DNA of 64,000 nucleotides from Solirubrobacterales bacterium (GTDB taxonomy: Bacteria > Actinomycetota > Thermoleophilia > Solirubrobacterales > JACPNS01), in NCBI GenBank assembly GCA_051306435.1, contig JBPPNF010000012.1, forward strand, positions 1,908-65,907. The letters are read 5' to 3'. Position numbers and translations under genes: made by a program. Shown here piece by piece: positions 24,159 through 45,716 of the stretch (its first letter is position 1; each line of letters begins with the position of its first letter). The notes beneath the pieces were generated by a model. That model was given only the letters and a program-made list of their open reading frames with translations, did not search any database and was not told the origin of the DNA.

Positions 24159-25400
24159 TTACGCCTGGCGAGTCGCGGTCTCGCCAGGTGAATCACCGGA
24201 GCCAAACTGGGCCAACACCTTTGCCCGCTTGCGGGGCAAGATGTTCGCGCGGGAGATATCGCCGTGATAATGCTCGATCACCCGCTTGTCCATCACGCGC
24301 CTCCAGACTGGCGGGAACAGGGCCAGGACGATCATTCCCGCATAGCCGGTGGGCAGATGGGGAGCCTCGTCGAAGCTGCGGAGTGCCTGGTAGCGACGGG
24401 TCGGGTGGGCATGATGATCGCTGTGGCGCTGCAGGTGATACAGAAACACGTTGGACGCGACGTTGTTGTTGTTCCAGCTGTGCGAAGGCATGCAACGCTC
24501 GAAACGCCCATCTTCCTTCTTCTGGCGAGCCAGTCCGTAGTGCTCAAGATAGTTGACGACCTCCAACAGGCTGAAGCCGAGCAGCCCCTGAAGTATGAGG
24601 TATGGCAGCACGACCCAGCCGAACACGGCGACAAGCGTTCCGAACAGCGCGATCGACATCAACCACGCATTGAGCAGATCGTTCTTGATCGTCCAGAACG
24701 ATGAACCGGTGCGCTTCAGCCGCTTGCTTTCAATCTCAATCGCCGAGCGCATACTGCCTGCCACCGTCCGCGGCCAGAATTCGTAGAAGTTCTCGCCAAA
24801 GCGCGAACTTGCCGGATCTTCTGGCGTCGCGACTCTCACGTGGTGGCCGCGATTGTGCTCGATGAAAAAGTGCCCGTAAAAAGTCTGGGCGAGAGCGATC
24901 TTGCTGAGCCACCGCTCAAGCGAATCACGTTTGTGTCCAAGTTCGTGGGCCGCATTGATGCCGAGGCCACCGATCGTACCGATTGTCAACGCGAGACCGA
25001 TGTCTGCGGCCGTCGAGAGGTCGCCGTACGCCCACATCCAGCAGGCAAAAATGAGTCCGGCAAACTGAAGCGGAATGAATCCGTAGGTGATCCATCGATA
25101 GTAAGGATCCTCTTCCAACCAGGCGAGCACGCTGTCTGGTGGATTCTTGGAATCTTCGCCGATGATCAAGTCGAGCAGTGGGAAGATCACAAAAAGCAGT
25201 GCCGGGCCGATGAACCAGAACGCGATCGAGCCGGTCAGTTCGACGAGTCCCCAGGCCACAAATGGTGCCAGAGGGATGATTGTGCCGAGAATCCACGCGT
25301 AGCGCTTCGGGTCCTTCCACGTGGCCGGGGTGAGTTCAACCGGATCATTCTCGTCACTGGCTGTGTACTCCAGATCAGACAGGCTCGACGTGCTGGGCAT
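24159..25400 (-). CDS. alkB: Alkane 1-monooxygenase (membrane di-iron hydroxylase)
   Basis: HELGHK, EHNRGHH, NYLEHYG (HYG motif), LQRHSDHHA; AAGGAG RBS before ATG 25400. Confidence 0.95.
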   Translation of the reverse strand: MPSTSSLSDLEYTASDENDPVELTPATWKDPKRYAWILGTIIPLAPFVAWGLVELTGSIAFWFIGPALLFVIFPLLDLIIGEDSKNPPDSVLAWLEEDPYYRWITYGFIPLQFAGLIFACWMWAYGDLSTAADIGLALTIGTIGGLGINAAHELGHKRDSLERWLSKIALAQTFYGHFFIEHNRGHHVRVATPEDPASSRFGENFYEFWPRTVAGSMRSAIEIESKRLKRTGSSFWTIKNDLLNAWLMSIALFGTLVAVFGWVVLPYLILQGLLGFSLLEVVNYLEHYGLARQKKEDGRFERCMPSHSWNNNNVASNVFLYHLQRHSDHHAHPTRRYQALRSFDEAPHLPTGYAGMIVLALFPPVWRRVMDKRVIEHYHGDISRANILPRKRAKVLAQFGSGDSPGETATRQA

Positions 25401-25669
25401 TATTTCGAACTCCTTGCGCATTTGGACAATGGGACCGGTGTGATCTTTTTCGAACGCACAATGCTTGGCTGCGAAAAACTGTTGAGCAGCTCAATTTCAG
25501 CGATGACTCTGGATTGGACGGATTCGGACTCAACGGGCAGTCGCTCAGAATCGCGGGTTGTTCTGGCGCTCGCTCAAAGCGACGGCTGGGAAATGCTTCA
25601 CCGTGCGTCCGTCATGATCAGCTTCCAGATTCAAATGTGTGCTACCCGTTAAGCCTGCATACACCCCGT

Positions 25670-25684
25670 TTTACATCGTGTCAA
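25670..25684. promoter_or_regulatory. Operator copy 1 (TTGACA-N3-TGTCAA) upstream of alkB
   Basis: TTTACA-TCG-TGTCAA, one mismatch. Confidence 0.65.
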
Positions 25685-25807
25685 TCTAGCACTTCAGCTG
25701 CCTGTATGTGGCTATTTCCAGGTGGCAGGACACTCCACTCGTAGTCACTCAGGCGAAAGCGCGTGGTTCAATCCCTTGGCCCGTCCGAGCCCGGTCTGAT
25801 CCTCGGG

Positions 25808-26395
25808 TCAGATCGCGTTTGTCCAGACTTCGTAAAGGCCTTCGACCATTTCATCAGCGGACATGTCGTCGGGCGCGACCACGCGCAAATAACATGCGCG
25901 CTCCGTCATCCACACAAGTAGATAGGCCTTGGTTCGCGCCGCTTCGGCGGTCCCTCCATCAGCGACGATGCGGCCTTGGGTTGCAGTGATGAATCGATCT
26001 ATTATTTCGTGCCAAAGGCGCCGAATTTCGCCGTCGTACGTGGACGCCTCTACGACAGCACCCATTACCGGACCATGTTCGTCGTAGATTCGAACAACAT
26101 TCTCCATAGCTACGTGAAGGTCTTGTGGGTCACTCGCCCCACTCCACCAAACTTCGGCTTCATCAAACAACGAGCTCGCGACTCGGTGCACAATTGTGGC
26201 CAGAAGATCCCGCTTGTCGCGAAAGTAAAAGTAAAACGCGGTTCGCGTGCGGCCCGCGTGTTCGGCAATCCGGCCCACGCTCAGATCGGCAAAAGGTGAA
26301 CCCGCCGCAAGAAGCTGCTCTGTCGCAAGAATGAACGAATCTTCGACCTCGCTGCGCTGTTGATCGGTTTCGCTGCGGCGCGAAATTGTGCTCAT
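25808..26395 (-). CDS. TetR-family regulator, EthR-like
   Basis: ILATEQLL..ADLSVGRIAEHAGRTRTAFYFYF; C-terminal W..MTER resembles EthR; TAGGCT -10 seven nt before ATG. Confidence 0.92.
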   Translation of the reverse strand: MSTISRRSETDQQRSEVEDSFILATEQLLAAGSPFADLSVGRIAEHAGRTRTAFYFYFRDKRDLLATIVHRVASSLFDEAEVWWSGASDPQDLHVAMENVVRIYDEHGPVMGAVVEASTYDGEIRRLWHEIIDRFITATQGRIVADGGTAEAARTKAYLLVWMTERACYLRVVAPDDMSADEMVEGLYEVWTNAI

Positions 26396-26419
26396 GCTTC
26401 AGAGCCTAATCGCTTGGGC

Positions 26420-26434
26420 TTGACATGTTGTCAA
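26420..26434. promoter_or_regulatory. Operator copy 2 (perfect TTGACA-TGT-TGTCAA) in the TetR promoter
   Basis: Perfect 6-bp-arm inverted repeat overlapping the -35 region. Confidence 0.75.
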
Positions 26435-26443
26435 ACAGTGTGT

Positions 26444-26600
26444 TTAACCATCCCGGGTCTCGGTGAGGCTTGACTCAAGACGGTGGTTCTTCTCGAACTC
26501 CTCGGGCGTGACGTCACCCAGGCTCTCGTTGAGTCCACCCGAGTTGAACCAGCCGATGAAGGTTGCGATGGCAAGCTATGCGTCGAAGTGCGAGCGAGCG
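26444..26600 (-). mobile_element. IS3-family remnant (transposase C-terminus and right terminal IR)
   Basis: Manual translation HFDA*LAIATFIGWFNSGGLNESLGDVTPEEFEKNH resembles the IS3 OrfB end (ELAIAEYIGWFN..RLHESLG..P.EFE); end TTAACCATCCCGGGTCT resembles IS6110-type TGAACCGCCCCGG. Confidence 0.75.
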
Positions 26601-26611
26601 AATCAATTCCA

Positions 26612-27385
26612 CTACCGAACGCCGGCACCCATCGCATGAAATCCGCCGTCGACATGCACAATCTCGCCGGTGATGGCCCTCGCGTGGTCGGACATCAGAA
26701 AGCAGATTGTCGAGGCGACCGGCCCCGAGTCGCCAGGGTCCCAGCCAAGCGGCGCCTGCTCCGCCCAAGCGGCCGAAAGTTTGTTGAACCCCGCGATCCC
26801 TCCGGCTGCGGCGGTGTCGAGTGGTCCTGCCGCAACGAGATTCACCCGCGTGCCCCGTGGTCCAAGGTCACGCGCCAGGTACCGGGATGTCGACTCCAAC
26901 GCAGCCTTTGCCACGCCCATCCAGTCGTATGCCGGCCAGGCGACGGTGGCATCGAAGTCGAGCCCGACGAGGGAACCATTGCCCGGGGGGAAAAGCGGCG
27001 CGAGCGTCGCGCCGAGCGCTTTGAGCGAGAATGCGCTGACCGAGAATGCGTCGATCGCGGACGGCAAGGGCGTGGTCAGAAATTCTCCGCCAATTGCATC
27101 TTTCGGCGCGTAGGCGATCGCATGGAGCGCGGCGTCGAGCCCGCCCCAACTCGAACTCAGGTCGTCGGCGAGCGCCGCAAATGCGTCCTGGTCACGCACG
27201 TCGAGTTCGAAGATCTCAACTGGCGTTTCCAGCGCACGGGCAGTTCGTTCGGTCATCCGGCGCACTCGGCCAAAGCTGGTCAGAACTACTTCGGCTCCCA
27301 ATGACTGGGCAAGCCGCGCCGTCTCGAAGGCGATCGACTCACGGGTGACAACTCCCGTCAGAAGCACGCGTTTGCCGGCAATCAT
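26612..27385 (-). CDS. fabI: Enoyl-ACP reductase (InhA/FabI)
   Basis: TGVVTRESIAF, LHAIAYAP, YDWMGVAKAALES, AGPLDT, DGGFH. Confidence 0.93.
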   Translation of the reverse strand: MIAGKRVLLTGVVTRESIAFETARLAQSLGAEVVLTSFGRVRRMTERTARALETPVEIFELDVRDQDAFAALADDLSSSWGGLDAALHAIAYAPKDAIGGEFLTTPLPSAIDAFSVSAFSLKALGATLAPLFPPGNGSLVGLDFDATVAWPAYDWMGVAKAALESTSRYLARDLGPRGTRVNLVAAGPLDTAAAGGIAGFNKLSAAWAEQAPLGWDPGDSGPVASTICFLMSDHARAITGEIVHVDGGFHAMGAGVR

Positions 27386-27858
27386 CTGGACGCCTCGCGG
27401 TCTCGTTGCCAGATCAGATCAACCGAAGCGGAAGTCGTGCGCTTTTCGTTCTGATTTCTTATGTCGAGCGTGCAACTGACCAGCCCCGTGGCTTCGGAAA
27501 TCTCTCGGAGCTCAACGATTGTCCCGTGGACGGTGATCGTGTCCCCGAGGTACACCGGTCGTTTGAATGTTGCCTCGTTCACTCGTCGCATCGCGATCAC
27601 GCGTTCAGGGTCGAGCGGCAGCAATCCGAATGCATAAGAAAGGACAAGAAGCCCGTTGGCAATTCGCGAGCCGAAGATGCTTTGTCCCGCCCAGTTCGCG
27701 TCAGTGTGAACCGGGTGGCGATCTCCTGTCAGGTGCGAAAACATCACGACATCGGACTCCGTGACAGTTCTGCCAGGACTGTGAAAGCCCATGCCCGGCG
27801 ATAGCTGATCGAAGTACAGAGCAAACGACGAAGGCTCAAAGTGGAATGTTTCCGACAC
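27382..27858 (-). CDS. MaoC-like hot-dog dehydratase
   Basis: RTVTESDVVMFSHLTGDRHPVHTD, RIANG, FKRPVYLGDT. Confidence 0.88.
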   Translation of the reverse strand: MSETFHFEPSSFALYFDQLSPGMGFHSPGRTVTESDVVMFSHLTGDRHPVHTDANWAGQSIFGSRIANGLLVLSYAFGLLPLDPERVIAMRRVNEATFKRPVYLGDTITVHGTIVELREISEATGLVSCTLDIRNQNEKRTTSASVDLIWQRDREASR

Positions 27859-29287
27859 GCGCGGGTCCCTTCCTGGGGTTGCTGAAGAATTCGATGGCAC
27901 CGGCAATTCTTTCTCTGGTCGTGTGTGGCTCGATCACTTCGTCGATGTGACCGAGCGCAGCGGCTTTGCTCGCAGTCAGGTGTTCGCGCTGGTATTCGTC
28001 GCGTAGCTCGGCCTCTTTGGCCGGACCCTCGCTTCCGGCAGCTTCGATTTCTCGACGGTTGACGAGCTGCACAGCTGAGGTTGCGGACATCACGCCGATT
28101 TCGGCGGTTGGCCACGCCAGCGCGGTAGTCGCTCCCAGCGCCTTGGAGTTCATCGCGATGTAGGCACCGCCGAAGGCCTTGCGCAGAACGATCGTGAGCT
28201 TCGGGACGTCCGCCTCGGCGAATGCGTGGACGAGCTTCACTCCGCGTCGGATGATTCCGTTCGCCTCTTGAGCCTCACCCGGGAGGAATCCCGGGGTGTC
28301 CACGAGCACAACCAACGGAATCCCGAATGAATTGCATGTTCGTACGAACCGAGCTGCCTTCTCAGACGAATGCGAATCGAGTACGCCTCCGAGCCAGCGT
28401 GGTTGGTTGGCAACGAATCCGACCGAATGTCCGTTGACTCGCGCAAACCCGATTGAGATGTTTCGTGCCCAGAGCGGCTGGATCTCCAAAAATGTGCCGG
28501 GATCGACGAGCCGCTCGATAACGAGTCGAACGTCGTACACCTTTCGCGGGCTACGAGGCACCAGGAGCTCGACTCCGAACTGATCCTGGGGATCCCGAAC
28601 CGGAGGTGTGATCGGCACCTGAAGTCTCTCGAGCAGATCACGTGCATATGAAATCGCCTCAGCATCCGTCTCCGCAACATGGTGCGCCACGCCATTCTTG
28701 CTGTGAACGAGCGGGCCACCGAGTTGCTCTGCGGATATCTCCTCCCCCAGTGCCGCGCGCACGATTGCGGGGCCGGTGAGGAACATTCGCGCGTCGCGCG
28801 TGAGGACGACGAAATCCATCAATGCGGGCGAGTACGCGCCGCCGCCCGCTGCCGCGCCGGACACGACGGCGATCTGGGGAACTCGACCGGACATTGCAAC
28901 CTGATGACGGAACATCGCCGCATATCCGGCGAGCGAATCGATGCCCTCCTGGACTCGTGCGCCGGCGGATTCGATGATCGCGACGACCGGCTTGTCGGCT
29001 TTGTGAGCGCGTTCAAGATGCCTGGCGATCGTTTCGGCCTGCGCCGCACCGAGCGCGCCGGCCATGTACGACCTGTCCTGCGCATACGCGGCGACCGGTC
29101 GGCCGTTGCATTTTCCGATTGCGGCAACGACTCCGTCTCCGTCACTGGACTCGATCCCTGCGTTGCGCGAGCGCACGCGGGATCCAACGATCTGCATACT
29201 GCCCGAGTCGAAGAGGTGCTCGAGGCGCGTTATCGGAAGCCACGCAGTCTCTGCTTTGTTCGCCGCCGAGACCCGCATCACGCTCAC
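27836..29287 (-). CDS. Acyl-CoA carboxylase carboxyltransferase (beta) subunit
   Basis: GALG, SAGARVQEG, AAGGGAYSPA, DTPGFLPG, RKAFGGAY. Confidence 0.93.
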   Translation of the reverse strand: MSVMRVSAANKAETAWLPITRLEHLFDSGSMQIVGSRVRSRNAGIESSDGDGVVAAIGKCNGRPVAAYAQDRSYMAGALGAAQAETIARHLERAHKADKPVVAIIESAGARVQEGIDSLAGYAAMFRHQVAMSGRVPQIAVVSGAAAGGGAYSPALMDFVVLTRDARMFLTGPAIVRAALGEEISAEQLGGPLVHSKNGVAHHVAETDAEAISYARDLLERLQVPITPPVRDPQDQFGVELLVPRSPRKVYDVRLVIERLVDPGTFLEIQPLWARNISIGFARVNGHSVGFVANQPRWLGGVLDSHSSEKAARFVRTCNSFGIPLVVLVDTPGFLPGEAQEANGIIRRGVKLVHAFAEADVPKLTIVLRKAFGGAYIAMNSKALGATTALAWPTAEIGVMSATSAVQLVNRREIEAAGSEGPAKEAELRDEYQREHLTASKAAALGHIDEVIEPHTTRERIAGAIEFFSNPRKGPARVGNIPL

Positions 29288-30480
29288 GCCGCCAGGCACA
29301 ACACTGCATTGTGCCCACCGAATCCGAATGAGTTCGAGATTCCGTAGGCGAGAGGTTGGTCGGTTGCAAGCGCTTGAGGCTCGTTCGGAACATAGTTCAG
29401 ATCAAGACCCGGCTCCGGCTCGCGATAGTTGAGTGTTGGCGGGGCAACCCGTTGCTTGAGCGCTGAGATCGTTGCGACCGCTTCGACCGCCGCCGCGCCG
29501 CCGAGCAGGTGCCCAAGGCTCGATTTCAGCGATGAGACCGGCACGTCAGATCCACTCTCACCGAAGACCAACTTGATCGCGGTGGTTTCCGATCGATCGT
29601 TCAGCGGTGTAGATGTTCCGTGAGCATTCACGTAGTCGACCTGCTCCGTGACAAGAGACGCATCGGATATCGCGATCGACATCGCTCTACCTGCCGCAGT
29701 GCCCGCGGGGTCCGGGGCGGTGATGTGAAAAGCGTCGGTCGTCGCGCCGTAGCCGAGTAGAAAGCCGTAGATCGGTGCGCCGCGATCGATCGCCTTGTCT
29801 TCCCACTCGATCACGAGCGCGCCGGCGCCCTCTCCCATGACAAACCCGTCACGTTTTGCGTCGAACGGCCGCGAAATGCCAGACTCCGAGATCGCTCCCA
29901 TGGCCCGAAAACCTGCAGCCGCAAACTCACCGGTGGTCGATTCGCCTCCGCCGGTCACGAATGCGTCGGCGTCCCCAGCCTGGAGCAGACGCATTGCCAC
30001 TCCGATCGCCTGCGCGCTTGCGGCGCAGGCTGAAACGACTCCGTGGACCGGTCCGGTGAAATGCTCCCTCATGGCCACGGCGACCGGTCCAGCGTTCGGC
30101 ATCATCATCGGCACAGTCATCGGTGACACGCGACCGGGACCGAGTTCCCGATACACGTCGTGTTGTGCTTCAGTCGTGTCCAGGCCGCCGACGCCGGAGC
30201 CGATCACGCAGCCGATGCGATCCGCCGGATACGGCGCTTCGTCACGCCATCCCGCCATCTCAATCGCCTCTTCGGCTGCGGCGACGATCAGCTGCGTGGA
30301 CCGGTCAGTTCGCCGGACTTCTTTGCGGGTCATGACGTCCACAGGGTCGAAGTCGGCGCAGAGTGCGTCGGACTCTTCAATGCCGCTTCGGCCGGCGATC
30401 CAGCCGTCAAAAAGGGCGCGGCTGTTGTTGCCGAGCGAAGTGACCGCGCCCAGTCCAGTGATCGCAATGCGCCGCGTCAT
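29284..30480 (-). CDS. fabF: Beta-ketoacyl-ACP synthase II
   Basis: SACAAS (Cys), NAHGTSTPLND, LGHLLG, NSFGFGGHN. Confidence 0.95.
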   Translation of the reverse strand: MTRRIAITGLGAVTSLGNNSRALFDGWIAGRSGIEESDALCADFDPVDVMTRKEVRRTDRSTQLIVAAAEEAIEMAGWRDEAPYPADRIGCVIGSGVGGLDTTEAQHDVYRELGPGRVSPMTVPMMMPNAGPVAVAMREHFTGPVHGVVSACAASAQAIGVAMRLLQAGDADAFVTGGGESTTGEFAAAGFRAMGAISESGISRPFDAKRDGFVMGEGAGALVIEWEDKAIDRGAPIYGFLLGYGATTDAFHITAPDPAGTAAGRAMSIAISDASLVTEQVDYVNAHGTSTPLNDRSETTAIKLVFGESGSDVPVSSLKSSLGHLLGGAAAVEAVATISALKQRVAPPTLNYREPEPGLDLNYVPNEPQALATDQPLAYGISNSFGFGGHNAVLCLAA

Positions 30481-30731
30481 GAGGCCTTGCTGACGATGAA
30501 CTCCACTGCGTCGCCGATCGTGCGGAGACCCTCAAGCGCTTCGCCGCCAAATTTGATGTTGTGTTCGTCGCCGACTATCTGGGCGATCTCCACGAGATCG
30601 AGGGAGTCGACGTCAATTGACTCGAAGCTCGTCGACATCTCGAGCCCCATTGACTCAGTGTCAGGGGAGACTTCGACGATCGCGGCGATCACCTGGCTCA
30701 GGACTTCCGTACTCAGTGCTGTTTCGGGCAT
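30477..30731 (-). CDS. acpP: Acyl carrier protein
   Basis: DVDSLDLVEI phosphopantetheine Ser; acidic 84 aa. Confidence 0.92.
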   Translation of the reverse strand: MPETALSTEVLSQVIAAIVEVSPDTESMGLEMSTSFESIDVDSLDLVEIAQIVGDEHNIKFGGEALEGLRTIGDAVEFIVSKAS

Positions 30732-30749
30732 TGTGTTACCTCCGAGTTT

Positions 30750-31478
30750 TCAGGCGCTCAGCCCGCCGTCAACGACGAGCTCAGCTCCAGTTATGTATTT
30801 GGACGATTCCGATGTGAGAAATCCGATTGCGTCGGCGACCTCGCTCGCGGTTCCGAGCCGACGCATCGGAATGACGTTCGCCGCGCCGCTTGGGATATCG
30901 CTTGTCATGTCGGTCGCGATGAAGCCAGGAAGCACCGCGTTGACCGTGATGTTCTTACGCGCAACTTCGGCCGCGACGGTGCGCGTGAATCCGAGCAGCC
31001 CAGCTTTGGCCGCCGCGTAATTCGCCTGGCCGGGGTTCGCTTTGGGTCCGACCACGGACGCAACGTTCACGATTCGGCCCTCCCGGGCGCGAAGCATTCC
31101 TGGAAGCACCTGCCGGGTCAGCCTGAACGCTGCAGAGAGATTGGTCTCGACGACGCTGTCCCAGTCGCGGTCAGTCAACGTCATGGAAAGTCCGTCTGCG
31201 GTGATGCCGGCGTTGTTGACCAGTGCGCGCACCGGACCGTGTGCGGCGAGCTGCTCCAGCATTGCGCTGACGGCCGGCCCGTCGGTGACGTCGGCCGGGG
31301 CCGCGACCGCGTTTCCGCCGGATTCGCGAATCTTTGACAAAACCTGCTCTGCGGCCGCGGAGTCGGAGCGGTAGTTGACGGCGACGAACCAACCGGACTG
31401 CGAGAGCTTGATGGCGGTGGCTGCGCCAATGCCACGAGACGCACCGGTCACGAGCGCAACGCGCTTCGGCTCGTTCAT
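30750..31478 (-). CDS. fabG: 3-oxoacyl-ACP reductase
   Basis: TGASRGIG, NNAG, YAAAK, PGFIATDMT. Confidence 0.94.
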   Translation of the reverse strand: MNEPKRVALVTGASRGIGAATAIKLSQSGWFVAVNYRSDSAAAEQVLSKIRESGGNAVAAPADVTDGPAVSAMLEQLAAHGPVRALVNNAGITADGLSMTLTDRDWDSVVETNLSAAFRLTRQVLPGMLRAREGRIVNVASVVGPKANPGQANYAAAKAGLLGFTRTVAAEVARKNITVNAVLPGFIATDMTSDIPSGAANVIPMRRLGTASEVADAIGFLTSESSKYITGAELVVDGGLSA

Positions 31479-32476
31479 ACCGCGCTCCACTCGACGACCG
31501 TGCCGGCCCAGGTCAGGCCTGCGCCAAAAGCTGCAAGCAGAACGAGCGATCCATCGGGGATGCGCTCGTTCTGATTGAAGAGATCGAGGGTCAACGGCAT
31601 CGTCCCCGAGGAACTGTTGCCGTAGTCACGAATCGAATACATCACTCGTGACTCGTCGAGGCCGAGCTCAGCAATGACTGCTTCGAGCACACGCCCGTTC
31701 GCTTGATGGAAGAGGAAAAAGTCGATCTCGTCGAGCTCACAACCGAAGGCCTCCGCGGCCGAGACGGCAACTTCAGACATCCGCCGAACCGCCTCACGAA
31801 ATGTGTCGAGACCGCTCATCAGGATTTTTGGATCCGCAGCAGTCGCGGATGCGGTGATGAAATCGCCGTTTGCCCCGTCGCTGCCCATGATCACGGGGCC
31901 TATCCCTCTGGAGTCGTCCACCGCTTCCACAAGCGCGGCGCCGGCGGCGTCGGCAAACAAGCTCAGCGTGCCGCGGTCCTGGGGGTCAAGGAAGCGGGAC
32001 ATCACGTCCACCCCGACCACCAGTACGCGGTCCATCCGGCCTGACTCGATCACTGCCGCGGCGATGCCGATCGCTGATACCCATCCTGAGCACGCGGCAC
32101 CGACGTCGAGTGCACCCGCACTGCGGGCGCCCACGGCGCGGGCGATCAGTGGTGCGACGTTGGGCAGAAGTCGATCGGGTGAGATCGTTGAGACAAGCAC
32201 CAGATCGATCGATTCTGGCTCTGCGCCGGATGAAGCGATCGCCTCGCGAGAAGCAGCCGCGCCGAGGCTCGCCACAGTGTCATCGGCACCGGCAACTCGG
32301 CGTCGCTGGATACCGGTGCGCTTTTCGATCCACCCGGATTCAAGATTCAGCGCGTGCTCAATTGCGCCGTTTTCCACGATCGTTTCCGGCACTGAGTGGC
32401 CGAGCCCAGTGATTCCGGGGGTGGCCCGGTGGTTGGTCATCCGCGAAGGCGAGCTTGGGGGGGAGCCGTTAGTCAT
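31475..32476 (-). CDS. fabH: Beta-ketoacyl-ACP synthase III
   Basis: GAACSG (Cys), FHQAN (His), YGNSSS (Asn), FGAGLTW. Confidence 0.93.
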   Translation of the reverse strand: MTNGSPPSSPSRMTNHRATPGITGLGHSVPETIVENGAIEHALNLESGWIEKRTGIQRRRVAGADDTVASLGAAASREAIASSGAEPESIDLVLVSTISPDRLLPNVAPLIARAVGARSAGALDVGAACSGWVSAIGIAAAVIESGRMDRVLVVGVDVMSRFLDPQDRGTLSLFADAAGAALVEAVDDSRGIGPVIMGSDGANGDFITASATAADPKILMSGLDTFREAVRRMSEVAVSAAEAFGCELDEIDFFLFHQANGRVLEAVIAELGLDESRVMYSIRDYGNSSSGTMPLTLDLFNQNERIPDGSLVLLAAFGAGLTWAGTVVEWSAV

Positions 32477-32543
32477 CCTTCGAGATGAAAGCGGCGCTGT
32501 AGCCGAGAATTCTGATACCTGTCGCTAATGTTTTTTCGATTGT

Positions 32544-33746
32544 ATGGAATCTGGTGATAAAAACGCTTCAAGCGCCAGCGACGACCGCCCTTGGCACGAT
32601 CTTCCGCCAGAACTCGCCCCGTTTCTGGCCCAGGCCGGATCAACATTTGTAGCTGAGATGCTCTCGCAGTTCGAGACCGCGATTCCTGAGTTTTCTCGAC
32701 CGGACGACACTGAATTCGTTCGCAACCTTGAAGCCGCGCTCACCCAGGGTTTCGATGCGTTCGTAGGCCTGGTTTCCGGCGAGAACGAGGGCGTTATCGA
32801 TCCGGATCCCTATCGCGTCGCCGGCGCAGACGAGTTTCGCACGGGTCGTTCAATCTCCTCGCTTCAGTCGACGTATCGACTTGGCGGACGCGTGGCGTGG
32901 CGCCATGTGAGCGCTGCAGCCGTCGAGGGCGGCGCGCACGAGGACGTTCTGAGACCGCTTGCTGATGCATTGTTCGCGTTTGTTGATCAGCTCTGCCAGT
33001 TTTCGCTGGAGGGATATGCGGAAGCTGAGTCGGCGCAGTCGGACTCCGTCGGCGTTGCGCGGCGCAAGCTCTTTGACCTGCTGGTCACCGGTACATCACA
33101 TCCGAATCAGGCAGATTTTGCCGTGCGCGAGGCCAGATGGCGCGACTCAGGTTCGATCGCCGCGCTCGTTTTTGACTCCGATGCGCTCGCCGGTGTCGTG
33201 AACAGGCTTGACGCCGGGGTGTTGTACGGAACAATTTCTGGCGTCGGCTGCGTGCTTCTGCCCGACCCGAGCGGCCCTGGGCGGCGAGCCTTGCTCGATA
33301 CCGCGCTCAACGGGGTCAGTGCTGCGCTCGGTCCTGAATCGGACACGCATGATGCGAACCGATCGTTTCGCTGGGCCCACCAGGCGTGGTCGATGGTTGC
33401 ATCGGGCGAGCTGCCCACATCGAGCCCGTTGGTTGTGGACGAAGCGCTGGTCCCGCTCCTGTTGCGTTCGGATCGAGAACTCGTGGACCGCATCGTGCGA
33501 CTACGTCTGGCACCACTTTCTGAACTGCGGCCTGCCGTCGGCGCGCGGATGTCGGACACGCTTCTCTGCTGGCTGAGGCTCCACGGTGATCGCCGGGCGA
33601 TGGCCGAGGAACTTCATATTCACGTTCAGACGGTTGCCTACCGTGTCGCCCAGCTGCGCGAGATATTCGGCTCGGCGATGGATCGTCCGGATTCCCGGTT
33701 TGAGCTCGAGATCGCGTTGCGGTCAGTCGCACTGAGTGCTCCGTAG
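32544..33746 (+). CDS. PucR/CdaR-family regulator (FasR-like), divergent from the fab operon
   Basis: C-terminal HTH AEELHIHVQTVAYRVAQL; YRLGGRVAWR; placement next to fabH as for actinobacterial FasR. Confidence 0.9.
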   Translation: MESGDKNASSASDDRPWHDLPPELAPFLAQAGSTFVAEMLSQFETAIPEFSRPDDTEFVRNLEAALTQGFDAFVGLVSGENEGVIDPDPYRVAGADEFRTGRSISSLQSTYRLGGRVAWRHVSAAAVEGGAHEDVLRPLADALFAFVDQLCQFSLEGYAEAESAQSDSVGVARRKLFDLLVTGTSHPNQADFAVREARWRDSGSIAALVFDSDALAGVVNRLDAGVLYGTISGVGCVLLPDPSGPGRRALLDTALNGVSAALGPESDTHDANRSFRWAHQAWSMVASGELPTSSPLVVDEALVPLLLRSDRELVDRIVRLRLAPLSELRPAVGARMSDTLLCWLRLHGDRRAMAEELHIHVQTVAYRVAQLREIFGSAMDRPDSRFELEIALRSVALSAP

Positions 33747-33766
33747 GACGTAAGGCCGCCCACGGG

Positions 33767-34249
33767 CTATGCGTTTTCCATGTCTTTCCAGGAATACCAC
33801 GCGTCCGGCAACTCACTGCCGCCGCGCTCAAAATGTTCGACGGGCACTTCCAAGAACAGTGCGTGACAGTCCGCCAACACTGTTGCTCCATCGCTGATCC
33901 GCCCTGCGAGGTAGATCTTGCGACCATCGATCCGCTCGCACCAGGCCTCGACATCCAGGTCGCGGTCGAGGAAAGCCGGGGATCGAAAGTCCACAGTCAA
34001 GCTGGCAGTCACTGCCGGCCGGCGGAGGATCAACAGCATCGTGCCGAGCGCATCATCAAGTACTGTGGCGATCGCTCCGCCGTGAGCGATGCCGGGCGCG
34101 CCTTCCTGGCGACGATCGAGGCGGACCCGACCCTTGATCCGGTCGCCGTCAACGCGCAATTTCAATCCCATGCCGGCGGGGTTCTCAGGCCCGCAGCCCA
34201 GGCAATTCGGGTGGTGAGGCGGGATGCTTCCGTCTGCGAGCGGCTTCAC
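33767..34249 (-). CDS. PaaI-family thioesterase
   Basis: HHPNCLGCGPENPAG, GIAHGGAIATVLDD. Confidence 0.9.
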   Translation of the reverse strand: MKPLADGSIPPHHPNCLGCGPENPAGMGLKLRVDGDRIKGRVRLDRRQEGAPGIAHGGAIATVLDDALGTMLLILRRPAVTASLTVDFRSPAFLDRDLDVEAWCERIDGRKIYLAGRISDGATVLADCHALFLEVPVEHFERGGSELPDAWYSWKDMENA

Positions 34250-35280
34250 AGGCCATTCTCCAACAGACGGGCCATCGCGGCAACCCCATCCTGCTCAAGG
34301 CGGGCGATGTCGCGAACCACCTGACGCCCTGATTCGTGGTCAACGGCCTTGGCGCATTCCGCAAGCATCACCCACGCATCGGCCAGTTCATCGTATTTTT
34401 CTCCGACGCTGACAAGCGCGGGTTCTTCGAGCAGGTCGCCAAGATCATGCAGAAACTGCGCGTGAAGCGAACGAAACATGGCGCCGCCAGTTCCGGTCTT
34501 GACGATGAATATGTTCAGCCCCGCGAGCGCCTCGGGAAGATTCGACCCGAACAATTGCGGCCAATCCTGGTACGTCGCCGCAAAGTAATCGACCCCTTCC
34601 AATCCAGCCGCGCCTTTCATTCCGGCCAGCGCTTCCCCGCCACCCTGCATGTTGTCAAGCGCGCACTGAATCGCTGCTTTTCCGGCTTCCCTGGGGTCTC
34701 TCAGCCGATCAGGCCAGTCATAGACGAACGTCGTGTGACTGTTGGGGCCGGGAAATGAGTCGGAATTCCGCGCTCGCGCAAGCTCGGCAAGGCTGCAGGT
34801 CTGGATTTCCTCACGGTCATTGTCGGCCACGAAGGCCACGCCAGCTGATTCGTCGTAGCCGACGACAACCACATCGTGACGCGTGTTGTGCATTCGAACG
34901 TTGAGGTATTCGAGATGCTTGATGTCGGCCCAGACCATTGTGGGCCGGCCGGCGTCAAGCTCATTCTTCAAAATTGCCCAGCCCTCCGCAGGGTCGCTGG
35001 CCTCGCGGACCGTGAGTTCGATGCCCGTATGGATCGCAAAATCGCGCTCCATATCGGCTGTACGACCGACCAGGTAGAGCGGCGGATTGAAGTTTTCAAC
35101 CTCGACGTACAGAAATCCCAGCCCGCCGCCCAGGCCGAAAACCATCCCCTCGCTCAGAGTGCCGGCTCCGTAGTCGAGCCCGCGAAGCTCGAGGAGATCG
35201 CGAAGCGCTCCAGATCCGCAGTGGCCGGCCTTGCGGTGCGGGAAGGACGCTACTTGCGGGAAGTGTTGCTGCGTGGACAT
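34246..35280 (-). CDS. BtrH N-terminal domain / DUF4872 protein (papain-like Cys-His fold)
   Basis: HCGSGALRDLL, SEGMVFGLGGGLGF, HDVVVVGYDE, ADND. Confidence 0.8.
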   Translation of the reverse strand: MSTQQHFPQVASFPHRKAGHCGSGALRDLLELRGLDYGAGTLSEGMVFGLGGGLGFLYVEVENFNPPLYLVGRTADMERDFAIHTGIELTVREASDPAEGWAILKNELDAGRPTMVWADIKHLEYLNVRMHNTRHDVVVVGYDESAGVAFVADNDREEIQTCSLAELARARNSDSFPGPNSHTTFVYDWPDRLRDPREAGKAAIQCALDNMQGGGEALAGMKGAAGLEGVDYFAATYQDWPQLFGSNLPEALAGLNIFIVKTGTGGAMFRSLHAQFLHDLGDLLEEPALVSVGEKYDELADAWVMLAECAKAVDHESGRQVVRDIARLEQDGVAAMARLLENGL

Positions 35281-35303
35281 CGATGGCGGAGAATAGCCGA
35301 GGT

Positions 35304-35321
35304 GTTCACCAGATGGTGAAC
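35304..35321. promoter_or_regulatory. Putative TetR operator in the btrH-like/tetR divergent promoter
   Basis: GTTCACCA-GA-TGGTGAAC with perfect 8-bp arms. Confidence 0.7.
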
Positions 35322-35362
35322 CCGGCCGTCTCTGCGGCCATTTTCACGGTACGGTTGAGCAC

Positions 35363-35971
35363 GTGAATGTGACAGCCGCCAAGGAAACGTCGGAGCCGCT
35401 ACGCATCCTTGACGCCGCAATCGACGCGCTGGCCGAGTACGGATACGCGACTTGCTCGATGCAACGCATCGCCGATCACGCAGAAGTCGACAAGCGGATG
35501 CTCCACTACTACTTCGGCGACCGCAACAGCCTGATCGTTCAGGTTGCCGAGCGAGTCGGTGATCGCCTGCTGGCAGGATTCGAAAGCGCGGTTGAAGGCT
35601 TGTCAAGCCCCCCCGAGATCGTCGCCGCCAGCTTCGAATCGCTTTGGGAGAATGTGGTGTCGGAGCCGCGGCTCCACGCCGTGCACTTGTGTCTCGTGTC
35701 TGCGGCCGTAACTGATGATTCGCTTCGTCTGCAAGTTGCGCGCATTCGTGATCGCTACTCCGAGCTCATTCTGGAACTCGCTGCGAGGGCTCGCAAGGCA
35801 GGTTTGGCGTTTCGTCTGAATGACGAAACTCTCGTCGGCCTGACCATGGCTGGTCTCAACGGTCTGACCGTCGATTACCTGCAGCGCGGCGAAACCGAAG
35901 AATTGACCCAGTCGTTGGCCGAGTTTCAATCCTGGTTGATGCAACTGGCAAGGCCGCCGGCTGACTCATGA
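35363..35971 (+). CDS. TetR-family regulator
   Basis: ILDAAIDALAEYGYATCSMQRIADHAEVDKRMLHYYF. Confidence 0.92.
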   Translation: MNVTAAKETSEPLRILDAAIDALAEYGYATCSMQRIADHAEVDKRMLHYYFGDRNSLIVQVAERVGDRLLAGFESAVEGLSSPPEIVAASFESLWENVVSEPRLHAVHLCLVSAAVTDDSLRLQVARIRDRYSELILELAARARKAGLAFRLNDETLVGLTMAGLNGLTVDYLQRGETEELTQSLAEFQSWLMQLARPPADS

Positions 35972-36022
35972 CCCGTCAGACAGTACGGAATCCGACCTCT
36001 GCGGCTACAATCGACGTACTGT

Positions 36023-36037
36023 TTGACGCCATGTCAA
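36023..36037. promoter_or_regulatory. Operator copy 3 (TTGACA-N3-TGTCAA) upstream of R2lox-rubredoxin
   Basis: TTGACG-CCA-TGTCAA, one mismatch, just downstream of a TACAAT -10 at 36006-36011. Confidence 0.7.
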
Positions 36038-36080: not shown

Positions 36081-36986
36081 GTGGCCAATCTTCTCGAACT
36101 CACCAGCCAGGGCGATGTCGGCACGATCAGCGATGAATCGAAACTGGCAAACATCGAACTACAGCAGCCCCAGCAACTTTACGAACTTTGGGAACGTCAG
36201 CCGTGGTCGGCTCACGAGATCGACCTCAGCCAGGACGTCGAAGACTGGAAGAAGTTCCCGGAGTCCGAAAAGGGAGATGTAATCTGGGGCCTCTCCTCGT
36301 TCTTCGTGGGCGAAGAACGCGTAACCACTCAGTTCTCCGGGTTGGTCATGGCGTACGAAGATCAGTCCGAAGAGGCTTTCCTCACGACGCAGCAGGTTGA
36401 CGAAGCTCGTCACACTCAGTTCTTCGCTCGGTACTACGAAGATGTGTTCAGCATCGGCAACGGCATCGAAGCGCAGCTTGCGCGTGTGCGAGAGGACGTC
36501 AACGAGGGTTTCCTCGAGTTGTTCGACGTACACCTCGTGAACGCTTGCAAGCAGCTCGTTGATCATCCTGATGACATGGAAGCCAAGGTCGACTTCGTCA
36601 CGACTTACCACATGATCATCGAAGGCACGCTCGCGCTGACCGGGCAGTTCTTCATCACTGATTTCTTCGAGCAGCGCGGAGTGATGCCGGGATTCGTTGA
36701 CGGATTCAAGAAGATCAGTCAGGATGAGCATCGGCACGTCGCTTATGGGACCTGGTTTCTCAAAGAGGCCTGTAAAGACCCGGCCCTCGCCAGCCGCATG
36801 CAGGCCAAATTGGCCGAGCTCCTGCCGATTGCCGCAACGGTACTGGTCCCCAAGGGCCAGGATCCCTTCGGTGACTGGACGCTTCTTGGCTACGACTCGG
36901 CGAAGGTGAATGAGTTTGCGTTCACCGCGTTGTCGCGCCGCCTCCGCGTTATCGGTGTGGGCCTCCCGGAGGTCGCACCGGCATGA
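36081..36986 (+). CDS. R2-like ligand-binding oxidase (R2lox; ferritin-like dimetal enzyme)
   Basis: GEERVT, DEARH, YHMIIEG, DEHRH match R2lox GEEAVT/EEAKH/YNxxxEG/DExRH, including the cross-link Val and Tyr. Confidence 0.85.
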
Positions 36987-37183
36987 GCCCCTCAGAAACC
37001 ATCGCTGAGTCAGCAACGTCTCAGATATGGATCTGCGAACCGTGCGGGATGATCTATGACCCGGTCGATGGAGATCCCGACGGAGGCATTCCACCAGGAA
37101 CACCGTTTGAAAGCGTTCCCGACACATGGTTGTGTCCCGTGTGCGGCGCGCGCAAGCGCGAGTTTGTTCCATACGTGGACTGA
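36983..37183 (+). CDS. Rubredoxin
   Basis: [34 protein letters not shown]; ATGA overlap with R2lox. Confidence 0.95.
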
Positions 37184-37253
37184 AGGTCATTGACTGCGCC
37201 GGTTGGTACTGAGCAGGCGTCTGCTCTGCCGGCTGGCGCAGTCAAGGCCTTCA
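37181..37253. repeat. Long (73-nt) imperfect hairpin starting at the rubredoxin stop
   Basis: TGAAGG..TTGACTGCGCC pairs with GGCGCAGTCAA..CCTTCA; apical GAGCAG-GCGT-CTGCTC. Confidence 0.7.
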
Positions 37254-37355: not shown

Positions 37356-37431
37356 TGGTGGAGCCAGACGGTTTCGAACCGACGACCTCCTGCTTGCAAA
37401 GCAGGCGCTCTACCAGCTGAGCTATGGCCCC
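37356..37431 (-). tRNA. tRNA-Ala (anticodon TGC)
   Basis: GGGGCCATAGCTCAGCTGGTAGAGCGCCTGCTTTGCAAGCAGGAGGTCGTCGGTTCGAAACCGTCTGGCTCCACCA, 76 nt with CCA. Confidence 0.97.
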
Positions 37432-42990: not shown

Positions 42991-44200
42991 GGCAACTGGT
43001 CCGCGATGGATCTCGACTTCGCGCAGGACAAGATTGACTGGAACGAGAAGCTCGACGACTTCATGCGCAGGGCCACGCGCTGGGACTACTCGCTGTTCTT
43101 CTTCGGCGAGGACGAGGTGGCCGATCAGCTCTCTCCGTTCATCGACGCTGCGCCGCTGGAGGAGCAGAAGTACTTCCTGACGACGCAGCAGGTCGACGAG
43201 GCGCGCCATGCGAGCTTCTTCTCGCGGTTCTTCAAGGAAGTGATCGGTGTTGACGGTGTCGGCTACGCGGACCGGCTGAACGCGATCGATGGCGACCTGA
43301 CCTACGGGATCAAGAAGGTCTTCGGGCTGCTGAACACCGTCACCGACGAGCTCCGCCGCGGCGATCATTCCAAGCCCAAGCTGGCGCAGGCGATCGCGCT
43401 GTACCACTTCATCATCGAGGGGACGCTCGCTCAGACCGGCCAGCACTTCACCGTCGACTACCTCGAACGCATGGATGTTCTCCCGGGCTTCCGTGAGGGC
43501 ATGCAGAACGTCGAAAACGACGAGCAGCGCCACATCGCCTTCGGCGTCAAGCTGCTCGCCGACCTCAACCGCCAGGATTCGGAAGTCCGGCCGGCAGTGC
43601 GCGAGATCCTCGGCACCGTGATGCCCTTCTCACCGGGAGTCTTCCGCCCACCCGACGACGACGACCGCTACGTCGAAGTCTTTGGCGAGACAATGGTCGG
43701 CATCGCGGTGACGGGAATGCGCCAGTTTGAGACGCGCGTCGGCGCTTGCGGGGCTTCAGGCGTACGGCCCGGAAGGCGTGCTGCCGTTCATCGACCCTGA
43801 GACGAGTCATGCCGAACGCGCCGCCCGTGCGTTCACGATGCAGCGGGCAGGGTTTTTCAGCGGTGGCACCGAGCCGATCAGGGCCGATGACGAGGCGCTC
43901 GACTTCTACTTCGATCTGGTCGCAGCCGCGGTCAGGCCCGACAACAAGCTCAAGAGCCCGACGACGATCTTCTGGGACTTCACCGACGCCACCCCGAGGC
44001 ACATGCGCATCGACGGGGCGAACGCAACTGTGGCGACCGGTCGCACCGAAGGCGCCGACGTGGTGTTCCGAACGGACCTCGCCACCTGGATCGGCATCTC
44101 CGGAGGTTTCGTTCAACCCGGCCGCGCGCTGCTCACACGCAAGCTCAGGATCAAGGGCAGTCCGATGACGCTGGCCAAGCTGACCGGCGTGTTCCAGACG
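42991..44200 (+). pseudogene. Second R2lox fused to a C-terminal SCP2 sterol/lipid-carrier domain; frameshifted and 5-prime truncated
   Basis: GEDEVA, DEARH, YHFIIEG, DEQRH; removing T43747 joins ORF 43006 to the SCP2 frame (IFWDF..ADVVFRTD..KLRIKG); conserved GNWSA lies upstream of the first ATG with no in-frame start before it. Confidence 0.78.
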
Positions 44201-44273
44201 CCCTGGACCAAGCGCAACCATCGCGGTGCCGGGCGGTTAACGTATTGCGCTGACCTTCCCTCAGCCTCTCGAT

Positions 44274-45716
44274 TTGTCTCCAAAGCCGCACACACACTCC
44301 GCCCGCGCGCTGCGCCGGCTCCTACCGGTGCTCGTTGCCGCCATCTGCCTGCCGCTGTTTGCGGCCGCTTCCGCTGGTGCAGTTGCATTCGAGTGGGAGG
44401 GCGCGCCGATCACCGGCGTCGACCCCGGCTCGATCGCGACTGATGCTGCCGGCCGCGTGTACGTGCCGATCCGCAATCAGGCAAAGATCAACATTTACGA
44501 CAACGCCCGCGGCGGCAACCGCCTGCTCGCGAGCATCGGCTCGGCACAGCTTCAGGATCCGATCGCCGTGGTGATCGACCTGCGCGGCTACATCTACGTC
44601 GCCGACGCGGGCAAGAATTCGATTGTGGCCTTCACGCCGTACTACTGGGGCGCGACCTATCTGGCCACCAGTGGTAAGCCCGGCCCGGCGCTCGGCGAGT
44701 TCGCCGGTCTGCGCCAGCTGGCGGCCGACCTCGAGCCACGAATCTACGCCGCAGAGGCCGACAACGGCCGTGTGCAGTCGCTCGACCCGGCGCGTGGAGC
44801 GCTCACCAGTCTTTTCGCCTTCGGCGTGACCGACCCGGGGCCGTGGGGACCGCTCGCCGGCATCGCGATCGACGACAACGAACGAATCGTCGTCTCGAGC
44901 GCGAATCCGACCGACGCGCCGCGCCTCTACAACGGCAACGGCGCTCTGGTCGGCAGTATCGAATCCGCAGGCTCGGCCCCGGGCCAGGTGTCTGGCCCGC
45001 TCGGCCTGACCTTTGATCCGGCGCACCGCCTGATGGTCGCCGACACCGGCAACGATCGCGTCGATCTCTTCAACTCGGTCGCAGGCGGGCTCGGCTACCT
45101 CACGCAGTTCGGCACCACCGGATCGGGCGACGGACAGTTCAACGAGCCGGGATCCGTTGCAGCGGCGCCAGGCGCTCTGGCCTACGTTGGCGACACCGGC
45201 AACGGCCGCGTTGTGCGGCTGCGCTACGACGATGCCGATCGTGACTCGGCGCTCGACGCGTCAGACAACTGCCTCGGAATTTCAAACTTCGCTCAGGGCG
45301 ACATCGACGCAGATCGCATCGGAGACGACTGCGACCCGGACGTCGACGGCGACCTGTTTCCGAATGCGAGCGACAAGTGCCCGTTGCTGAAGCCCTGGAC
45401 CGACCGAAACAAGGACGGCTGCCAGGACCCGTTCTCAAAGCTCAGCCAGCTGCGCAAGGCCGCCGCTGCTGTGACGCTGCGCGGAAGCGCCAGTGGCGGT
45501 TCGCTGGGTCTTGCGCGCGTGGAGGTCGCGATCGCCCGGCCGGGCGCGAAGCTCCGTTACGTGCGGGCCAGGGGCACCAGACGTTGGAGCCTGCGCGTCA
45601 GTACACGCAAGCTTTCGTCGGGCAGGTACCGCGTCTACACCCGTGCGATCCAGAAGCGCAGCAGGCTCGCTGAGGCGTCAAAGGGTGCCCGGGCAAACTT
45701 TCTCATCTCCCGCTGA
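44274..45716 (+). CDS. Secreted NHL-repeat beta-propeller with thrombospondin type 3 Ca-binding repeats
   Basis: Signal peptide; YVAD.GN.RV repeats; DADRDSALDASDNC, DIDADRIGDDCD, DVDGD..PNASDKCP. Confidence 0.88.
   Translation: MSPKPHTHSARALRRLLPVLVAAICLPLFAAASAGAVAFEWEGAPITGVDPGSIATDAAGRVYVPIRNQAKINIYDNARGGNRLLASIGSAQLQDPIAVVIDLRGYIYVADAGKNSIVAFTPYYWGATYLATSGKPGPALGEFAGLRQLAADLEPRIYAAEADNGRVQSLDPARGALTSLFAFGVTDPGPWGPLAGIAIDDNERIVVSSANPTDAPRLYNGNGALVGSIESAGSAPGQVSGPLGLTFDPAHRLMVADTGNDRVDLFNSVAGGLGYLTQFGTTGSGDGQFNEPGSVAAAPGALAYVGDTGNGRVVRLRYDDADRDSALDASDNCLGISNFAQGDIDADRIGDDCDPDVDGDLFPNASDKCPLLKPWTDRNKDGCQDPFSKLSQLRKAAAAVTLRGSASGGSLGLARVEVAIARPGAKLRYVRARGTRRWSLRVSTRKLSSGRYRVYTRAIQKRSRLAEASKGARANFLISR

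Follow-up and report, generated by a model that had tools for sequence, protein, structure and literature searches.

What joins the alkane hydroxylase gene alkB, a neighbouring tetR gene and an operon of R2lox and rubredoxin in a Solirubrobacterales genome, and what does the connection imply for R2lox? The genes lie in a 64,000-nucleotide stretch of contig JBPPNF010000012.1 (GenBank assembly GCA_051306435.1, positions 1,908 to 65,907), referred to here as the window. R2lox was described in 2009, and solved structures and detailed spectroscopy of such proteins exist; to our knowledge, neither its regulator nor its electron donor is known, and no physiological reaction has been accepted for it. 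The first-pass annotation of the window had proposed that a single operator links AlkB, the adjacent TetR (TetR1 below) and the R2lox-rubredoxin operon in a candidate alkane/fatty-acid oxidation regulon. The shared operator is strongly supported by its rarity in the genome and by phylogenetic footprinting, but TetR1 appears to be ancestrally the regulator of R2lox rather than of AlkB, since the TetR-operator-R2lox pair is kept in families without alkB. The comparisons described here support a TetR regulon centred on R2lox, to which alkB and a cytochrome P450 gene were added in one genus.

The palindrome and its association with TetR1

All three copies of the inverted repeat on which the annotation drew were confirmed, as was a TACAAT hexamer ahead of R2lox (Table 1), and the sites at 25670, 26420 and 36023 define a 15-bp palindrome, TTGAC(A/G)-N3-(C/T)GTCAA. 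Within the window, six sites are found at up to two mismatches where 1.11 are expected, and the refined pattern TTGACRNNNYGTCAA yields four at up to one mismatch against 0.48 expected, counts that none of 100 shuffles equalled. A scan of the whole genome (2,309,521 bp, 64% GC) returned only four sites at up to one mismatch, three of which fall within a 10.4-kb stretch of the window, all three intergenic. In 41 related genomes there are 74 occurrences of the motif and 21 of a reversed control pattern. A position weight matrix (PWM) built from the sites of other genomes ranks 26420 first (22.8 bits), 36023 second (20.2 bits) and 25670 third (17.8 bits) in this genome, a test that is partly circular since the sites had been chosen by pattern match. 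When sites are aligned across families, the half-sites are near-invariant and the 3-bp spacer and the flanks vary freely.

Several other matches were discarded. The fourth genomic site (C54:284) adjoins a transposase fragment, has no related genes and was set aside, and a site at 35592, which lies inside the coding sequence of a second TetR (TetR2) and scores low with the PWM, was treated as chance. Weaker PWM matches (14 bits or less), in or near housekeeping genes (nuo, ffh, ribosomal protein genes) or inside an acyl carrier protein gene, were rejected as regulon members. A repeat search with arms of at least 12 nt did not pick up the palindrome because its arms are 6 nt long.

TetR1 combines an N-terminal TetR_N domain (PF00440, 32.2 bits, cut-off 24) with a C-terminal EthR_C domain (PF21313, 42.5 bits, cut-off 27), and its best match in the Protein Data Bank (PDB) is EthR (E=1.3e-10, residues 9-192). 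The helix-turn-helix and recognition-helix segment SRTAFYFYFRDKR is conserved among the regulators compared. In other families the best TetR1 homologue (34-47% identity) is the gene divergent from R2lox, and the palindrome lies in the intergenic region between the two, an arrangement found in G036 (at two loci), G038, G033, G023, G015 and G040. In a sample of 80 public Thermoleophilia/Solirubrobacterales loci, scored at up to two mismatches, the motif is present at 30 of the 32 loci with a divergent TetR1-like gene and at 2 of the 48 without (Fisher p=2.6e-17, a value that overstates independence because the loci are phylogenetically related; the pattern is nonetheless unambiguous). The two motif-less loci with a TetR1-like gene carry versions with three mismatches (YTGACR-N3-YGTCAR).

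Footprinting upstream of R2lox orthologues (59-94% identity) shows the same palindrome kept across families: it is present 33-135 bp upstream in five other families of the order and is the only conserved block besides the ribosome-binding site and the start codon. R2lox paralogues (48% identity or less) have no palindrome upstream. In small metagenome-assembled genomes (MAGs; G042 and G046, for example), the site upstream of R2lox is the sole match in the genome, as expected of a local TetR regulator. Co-occurrence, adjacency, the conserved recognition helix and the fact that TetR2 has a palindrome of its own together lead us to assign the TTGAC palindrome to TetR1, as the putative operator of this EthR-like regulator.

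Table 1. Coordinates of genes, putative operators (O) and predicted promoter elements, as positions in the window
Feature	Positions	Strand	Sequence or motif	Description and basis
P450	22740-24146	+		convergent with alkB; nearest solved structures CYP4B1, CYP51, CYP102
alkB	24159-25421	-		AlkB-type integral-membrane alkane 1-monooxygenase; Pfam FA_desaturase PF00487, 104 bits
alkB leader	25425-25669	-		contains a ~200-bp insertion unique to this genome, absent from G001 and G007 (alignment)
O-alkB	25670-25684		TTTACATCGTGTCAA	one mismatch, one defective half-site; between tetR and alkB
Predicted alkB extended -10	25683-25691	-	TGC-TAGATT	overlaps the edge of O-alkB
TetR1	25808-26395	-		TetR-family regulator with EthR-type C-terminal domain, proposed repressor; Pfam and PDB search
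Predicted tetR -10	26403-26408	-	TAGGCT	7 nt before the ATG; conserved in the G000, G001, G007 alignment
O-tetR	26420-26434		TTGACATGTTGTCAA	perfect palindrome; 25-39 nt upstream of the tetR ATG
FAS-II-like block	26612-32476	-
PucR-like regulator	32544-33746	+
Thioesterase and BtrH_N/DUF4872 gene	33767-35280	-
TetR2 palindrome	35304-35321		GTTCACCAGATGGTGAAC	perfect 8-2-8, TTCACCA-N2-TGGTGAA; divergent BtrH-TetR2 promoter region
TetR2	35363-35971	+		second TetR, directly upstream of R2lox
Predicted R2lox-rubredoxin -10	36006-36011	+	TACAAT	11 nt before O-R2lox
O-R2lox	36023-36037		TTGACGCCATGTCAA	one mismatch to TTGACA/TGTCAA, perfect to TTGACR-N3-YGTCAA; 44 nt before the R2lox GTG
R2lox	36081-36986	+		start codon GTG; PDB, Pfam, alignment
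Rubredoxin	36983-37183	+		start overlaps the R2lox stop (ATGA); Pfam Rubredoxin PF00301, 73.6 bits
Hairpin after the rubredoxin stop	37181-37253	+		-57 kcal/mol, z=-8.6; no T tract
tRNA-Ala	37356-37431	-

Operator positions and a proposed mode of regulation

Upstream of tetR, the predicted -10 hexamer is kept even where the operator is missing; its closeness to the ATG and its conservation suggest that the tetR transcript is probably leaderless and that the operator, which is present in G000 and G001, covers the -35 region. Upstream of R2lox, a -10 of the form TAnnAT lies at the same place in relatives (TAACAT in G001, TATTAT in G007) and would place O-R2lox between about +5 and +19, counted from the predicted start of transcription. 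Repressors commonly bind at positions like these two. At alkB, TGC-TAnnnT at the operator edge is conserved in G000, G001 and G007, so the promoter-operator geometry is probably kept and the insertion peculiar to this genome falls in the leader. The insertion was considered as a mobile element, and no second copy was found in the genome or in the compared loci.

The link to alkB is a property of the genus. In each of the eight same-genus genomes that have a TetR1 orthologue, alkB (82-86% identity) comes immediately after tetR and the palindrome lies between the two genes; this site is perfect in seven (G001, G007, G002, G004, G011, G012 and G014). The AlkB translation contains all four His boxes (HELGHK, EHNRGHH, NYLEHYG, LQRHSDHHA), and the genome holds four alkB genes and three rubredoxins in total. 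Outside the genus, the searched genomes with a TetR1-R2lox pair have no alkB, with the single exception of Baekduia G049. Since the TetR-operator-R2lox pair is kept in alkB-less genomes and the alkB link is limited to the genus, TetR1 appears to be ancestrally a regulator of R2lox, alkB and the P450 gene having joined its regulon only here.

In the present genome, tetR and its operator are separated from the R2lox operator by 9.6 kb of other genes (the FAS-II block, PucR, thioesterase, BtrH and TetR2), and the layout of 26420-36037 looks as if DNA had been inserted into the ancestral divergent TetR-operator-R2lox pair that other families have. The G007-type relatives are arranged differently, in a compact cluster with TetR2, the operator, R2lox, rubredoxin and P450 on one strand and alkB, the operator and TetR1 on the other.

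Further putative targets are seen in Baekduia, where perfect or one-mismatch operators stand upstream of a P450 gene of the CYP124/125 type (G048, G049; L122, L123, L125, L126), closest to the CYP125/CYP124 lipid omega-hydroxylases, and, in G048 and G049, between genes for a GMC oxidoreductase and an SDR. Both positions are conserved and their spacers differ; no TetR gene is adjacent at either. Every regulon partner identified thus far oxidises long aliphatic chains or their alcohols. The hydrocarbon or lipid-oxidation context suggested by the first-pass annotation gains support from these Baekduia P450 and GMC genes and from the P450 gene that continues the R2lox-rubredoxin operon in same-genus relatives (G007, L041) as the third of three consecutive same-strand genes. 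Conserved neighbours of the TetR1-R2lox pairs in other families (SHMT, MraY/WecA-like, ATP synthase a) were discarded as functional clues, being housekeeping synteny.

The rarity and conservation of the sites, their co-occurrence with TetR1 and the gene linkage were observed; from these we infer DNA binding, repression, ligand, electron transfer and R2lox substrate, and to the resulting explanation as a whole we give a probability of about 0.8. A ligand-free TetR1 dimer would occupy its own, probably leaderless, promoter over the -35 region, the alkB promoter at a site overlapping the extended -10 and the transcription start, and a site just downstream of the R2lox-rubredoxin promoter, some +5 to +19 after TACAAT. 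A long-chain hydrophobic ligand (the hydrocarbon itself or an alcohol, acid or acyl-CoA derived from an alkane) would fill the EthR-type pocket and release the repressor, so that the membrane hydroxylase AlkB, the soluble Mn/Fe protein R2lox and rubredoxin would be made together. TetR, operator and R2lox would form an old core across Solirubrobacterales, to whose operator alkB and P450 were recruited in this genus. Rubredoxin, translationally coupled to R2lox, would deliver to R2lox the electrons of an NAD(P)H-dependent reductase and, in this genome, may also serve the adjacent AlkB.

The proposed arrangement has partial counterparts in known systems. In the EthR-EthA pair of Mycobacterium tuberculosis, as in the TetR1-R2lox pairs of other families, a repressor with an EthR_C domain is divergent from the monooxygenase that it controls; the target there is a flavin Baeyer-Villiger monooxygenase, and the identity of EthR to TetR1 is low. 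Several EthR dimers spread over a long stretch of 55 bp, whereas the operator here is a compact 15 bp, single or, in the R2lox promoters of Baekduia, in two copies 22 bp apart. EthR accommodates long aliphatic ligands, which have been found in EthR crystals. AlkU of Rhodococcus jostii RHA1 (PMC6921075) and AlkX of the M. tuberculosis Rv3252c-Rv3249c cluster (PMC9430723) are likewise TetR repressors of alkB and rubredoxin that act on palindromic promoter operators and are encoded beside alkB. Their genes, however, lie downstream of alkB-rubA-rubB, whereas here tetR is upstream of alkB with no rub genes between, and the AlkU operators IR1 (GATTTacAAATC) and IR2 (ACAAAT...ATTTGT) (PMC6921075) are unrelated to TTGACR-N3-YGTCAA. 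The regulator here also differs in its EthR-type C-terminal domain and its ancestral tie to R2lox, and rubredoxin is in an operon with R2lox rather than with alkB. TetR1 would function like AlkU, but with this operator sequence and gene position we do not class it as an AlkU orthologue. On this reading, the alkane-hydroxylase regulons of Thermoleophilia, a widespread and mostly uncultured class of soil bacteria, would be built differently from the Rhodococcus/Mycobacterium model.

A paralogue of TetR1 (31-34% identity) was observed in another genome (L040, G020:C6, 4784-9302), where it is accompanied by a site, TTGACACGATGTCAG, and is divergent from the genes for the alpha and beta hydroxylase subunits of a soluble di-iron monooxygenase. 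This locus suggests that the TetR1 subfamily generally guards hydrocarbon oxygenases.

R2lox, its rubredoxin and the alternatives

R2lox of the window is related to solved proteins at about 30-35% identity (best matches 7qbp, 5e-28, and 3ee4, 1e-23) and has a Pfam Ribonuc_red_sm domain (66.8 bits). The six metal ligands (E78, E108/H111, E181, E216/H219) align with those of 3ee4 and 7qbp and are invariant in nine orthologues. Also invariant in the orthologue alignment are the ether cross-link pair, V81 (in GEERV) and Y176 (in TYHMIIEG), and F115, which occupies the position of the R2 radical tyrosine four residues after H111. The same ligands, Val-Tyr pair and Phe are found in MtR2lox (Rv0233), GkR2loxI and SeR2lox; the difference from these solved proteins is the translational coupling to rubredoxin. 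The top NCBIfam models are all R2lox models, the best of them (NF006200) scoring 150.7 bits against a curated cut-off of 194, and NrdB models reach at most 36 bits. The protein is thus a divergent R2lox, not NrdB, its own family's models being on top but below the equivalog cut-off.

The adjoining rubredoxin has two CxxCG motifs (CEPCG and CPVCG). The overlap of R2lox stop and rubredoxin start (ATGA or TGATG) recurs in five further lineages (L042, L047, L050, L056 and L118), in all of which a TetR1-like gene and the operator are present. No alkB was detected in the MAGs of these five lineages, three of which are small assemblies. As R2lox-rubredoxin operons thus occur in MAGs without detected alkB, rubredoxin is most likely the electron donor of R2lox. 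In L050 the rubredoxin is followed by a gene with Pyr_redox_2 and Reductase_C domains, an architecture of ferredoxin/rubredoxin reductases, to give an oxygenase-rubredoxin-reductase operon; a single homologue of this reductase is found in the present genome (C7:8555-9760, 45% identity). At the level of genes the L050 operon follows the logic of AlkB-AlkG-AlkT, oxygenase, then rubredoxin, then FAD/NAD(P)H reductase, although the AlkB oxygenase is a membrane di-iron protein of the desaturase fold and R2lox a soluble ferritin-fold Mn/Fe protein.

Oxidation of alkanes by R2lox is not a new idea. In 2024, C10-C22 alkane loss was reported with crude recombinant GkR2loxI of Geobacillus and NADH, and R2lox was named an alkane monooxygenase (PMC10867098); this sole activity report used crude lysate, in which the cofactors supplied by the host were unknown. 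Another paper (PMC9314684) states that the function of R2lox is still to be established, and it cites haloarchaeal gene clusters in which R2lox occurs with ferredoxin and SCP2, as well as induction by hexadecane. The statement in the first-pass annotation that the R2lox reaction is unresolved is therefore partly outdated. The haloarchaeal clusters resemble the present locus in combining a small iron-sulfur carrier with hydrocarbon exposure, and SCP2 is linked to an R2lox paralogue in the window; they differ in belonging to another domain of life, in having ferredoxin rather than rubredoxin and in that no TetR or operator is described there (PMC9314684). In M. tuberculosis, too, a TetR gene (Rv0232) is adjacent to the R2lox gene Rv0233, and the two are given as a predicted operon (PMC2724278, PMC4477654). 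In the searched library, no paper joins R2lox with rubredoxin and none describes an R2lox regulator or operator; the rubredoxin(-reductase) partnership, the TetR regulator and its operator thus appear to be undescribed.

An alkane or long-chain-lipid role of R2lox is plausible and in keeping with these earlier hints. More tentatively, and at somewhat less than an even chance, R2lox, rubredoxin and an NAD(P)H-rubredoxin reductase may constitute a previously unrecognised soluble three-component Mn/Fe hydroxylase of long aliphatic chains (alkanes or fatty alcohols/acids), switched on by the EthR-like TetR via TTGACR-N3-YGTCAA and working beside or instead of AlkB/P450 in Thermoleophilia. The regulator, the operator and the rubredoxin(-reductase) link make the question of R2lox open to experiment: a candidate cognate repressor with a 15-bp operator could lead to the natural inducer and, through it, to the class of substrate; the coupled rubredoxin, with a reductase in one lineage, offers a defined electron-transfer chain for reconstitution; and AlkB, the P450s and the GMC oxidoreductase as regulon partners point to long-aliphatic-chain oxidation.

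Several points weigh against the regulon as proposed, besides the circularity of the PWM ranking and the relatedness of the loci already mentioned. All promoter elements are predicted, and none comes from the strict sigma-70 scan. The G007-type relatives have no site upstream of tetR in the alignment. At alkB, the mismatch at 25670 puts T where 73 of 74 aligned half-sites have G, and the unique insertion places the operator 249 bp from the alkB ATG (G001, 35 bp; G007, 86 bp); control of alkB may, on both counts, be weak in this genome. In Baekduia G049, the contig that carries the alkB paralogue is free of operators, which confines the alkB link to the present genus. Most lineages have R2lox alone with TetR among housekeeping genes, and the alkane link is drawn from few lineages. 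Finally, the absence of alkB from MAGs G041-G043 (1.7-1.9 Mb) could reflect incompleteness.

How far do other explanations account for these data? One half of the motif is identical to the -35 consensus of sigma-70, and the three sites might thus be chance matches or ordinary -35 boxes with no dedicated regulator, a possibility that the first-pass annotation had itself raised in asking whether the motif is frequent in random intergenic DNA. The genome and shuffle counts contradict it, as do the excess over control sites in related genomes and the conservation of both half-sites across families around variable spacers. A strict sigma-70 scan (TTGACA-17-TATAAT type) found no promoter in either operator region, and there is no -10 at 16-18 nt, so the -35 objection fails and the explanation is scarcely credible; by the same result the promoter elements of Table 1 draw on conservation only. 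That the palindrome is bound by another factor, such as a global regulator or TetR2, with TetR1 associated by synteny only, is very improbable: TetR2 does lie directly upstream of R2lox in this genus, a gene that the first-pass annotation had left out, but it is missing from the motif-bearing loci of other families and has its own conserved palindrome, and the motif tracks TetR1-like genes in the 80 loci.

The remaining alternatives accept the regulon and differ on function. The rubredoxin might serve AlkB only, or perhaps the P450, with R2lox a mere operon neighbour and the operator a means of co-regulating AlkB with its electron carrier. The requirement of AlkB enzymes for rubredoxin (PMC8918992), to which the first-pass annotation had appealed, stands, and no rubredoxin gene adjoins alkB of the window, in contrast with the alkB-alkB-rubredoxin-TetR cluster elsewhere in the genome; yet the five MAGs with overlapping R2lox-rubredoxin genes and no detected alkB, one with an adjacent reductase, make this improbable, and the rubredoxin is less likely to be there for AlkB than for R2lox. 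It may also be shared by the adjacent AlkB in this genome. A weightier alternative, though still an unlikely one, is that R2lox takes no part in alkane oxidation: the signal for TetR1 would be a membrane lipid or a fatty acid, and R2lox would act on the cell's own lipids by hydroxylation, desaturation or deformylation of fatty acyl compounds. A common response to lipid load would then be the sole reason why alkB shares this sensor with R2lox in one genus. C16/C18 hydroxy fatty acids accompany R2lox proteins through purification (PMC9314684), the TetR-R2lox pair is kept among housekeeping genes (glyA, wecA-like, atpB) in many alkB-less genomes, and an R2lox paralogue is fused to or adjoins an SCP2 lipid-carrier domain in the window and across the order. 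In three lineages, however, each of the partners (AlkB, P450s, GMC) is a hydroxylase or an alcohol oxidoreductase that acts on long aliphatic chains, and the published alkane loss with crude GkR2loxI (PMC10867098) also speaks against this alternative.

Further features of the island

The R2lox paralogue just mentioned lies at 43006-44443 of the window (36% identity); it has the ligand motifs and a Pfam Ribonuc_red_sm domain and is followed by the SCP2 sterol-carrier domain in another frame. The length of its counterparts in relatives, open frames of 440-650 aa, points to an R2lox-SCP2 fusion that is kept throughout the order and has possibly undergone a frameshift in this genome. No TTGAC operator is found near this paralogue. 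At another locus (L043, 4934-6484), an R2lox orthologue with the operator has no adjacent TetR1-like gene and is followed by a convergent gene for a flavin-containing (FMO)/Baeyer-Villiger-type monooxygenase, resembling an EthA-like context.

The palindrome of TetR2, GTTCACCAGATGGTGAAC, is conserved in G001 and L041 and is probably the operator through which TetR2 would control the BtrH/thioesterase genes and itself; other families have no TetR2 at their TetR1-R2lox loci. Perfect TTGACA-N3-TGTCAA sites also occur at a conserved position between two small membrane-protein genes (L033/L035; G014:C6:25168 and G009:C5:15979). G009 has neither TetR1 nor an R2lox orthologue despite its perfect site, and these sites may represent an unrelated promoter or the site of another factor.

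The hairpin that follows the rubredoxin gene is a probable operon end, its terminator function being predicted from the fold. Its outer arms read TTGAC...GTCAA, and the G007-type relatives have a P450 gene at the place that it occupies here, so that it may mark a rearrangement junction as well as an operon end.

In the closest relative (L030, G001:C94, 786-4900), the position of the P450 gene, convergent with alkB, is taken by a four-gene soluble di-iron monooxygenase (alpha, reductase, beta and MmoB-like coupling protein); the island carries interchangeable hydrocarbon oxygenases. Of the two further rubredoxins of the present genome, one belongs to a canonical actinobacterial cluster at C32:6900-9660, with two tandem alkB genes, the rubredoxin and a TetR-like gene, which is separate from the EthR-like regulon.

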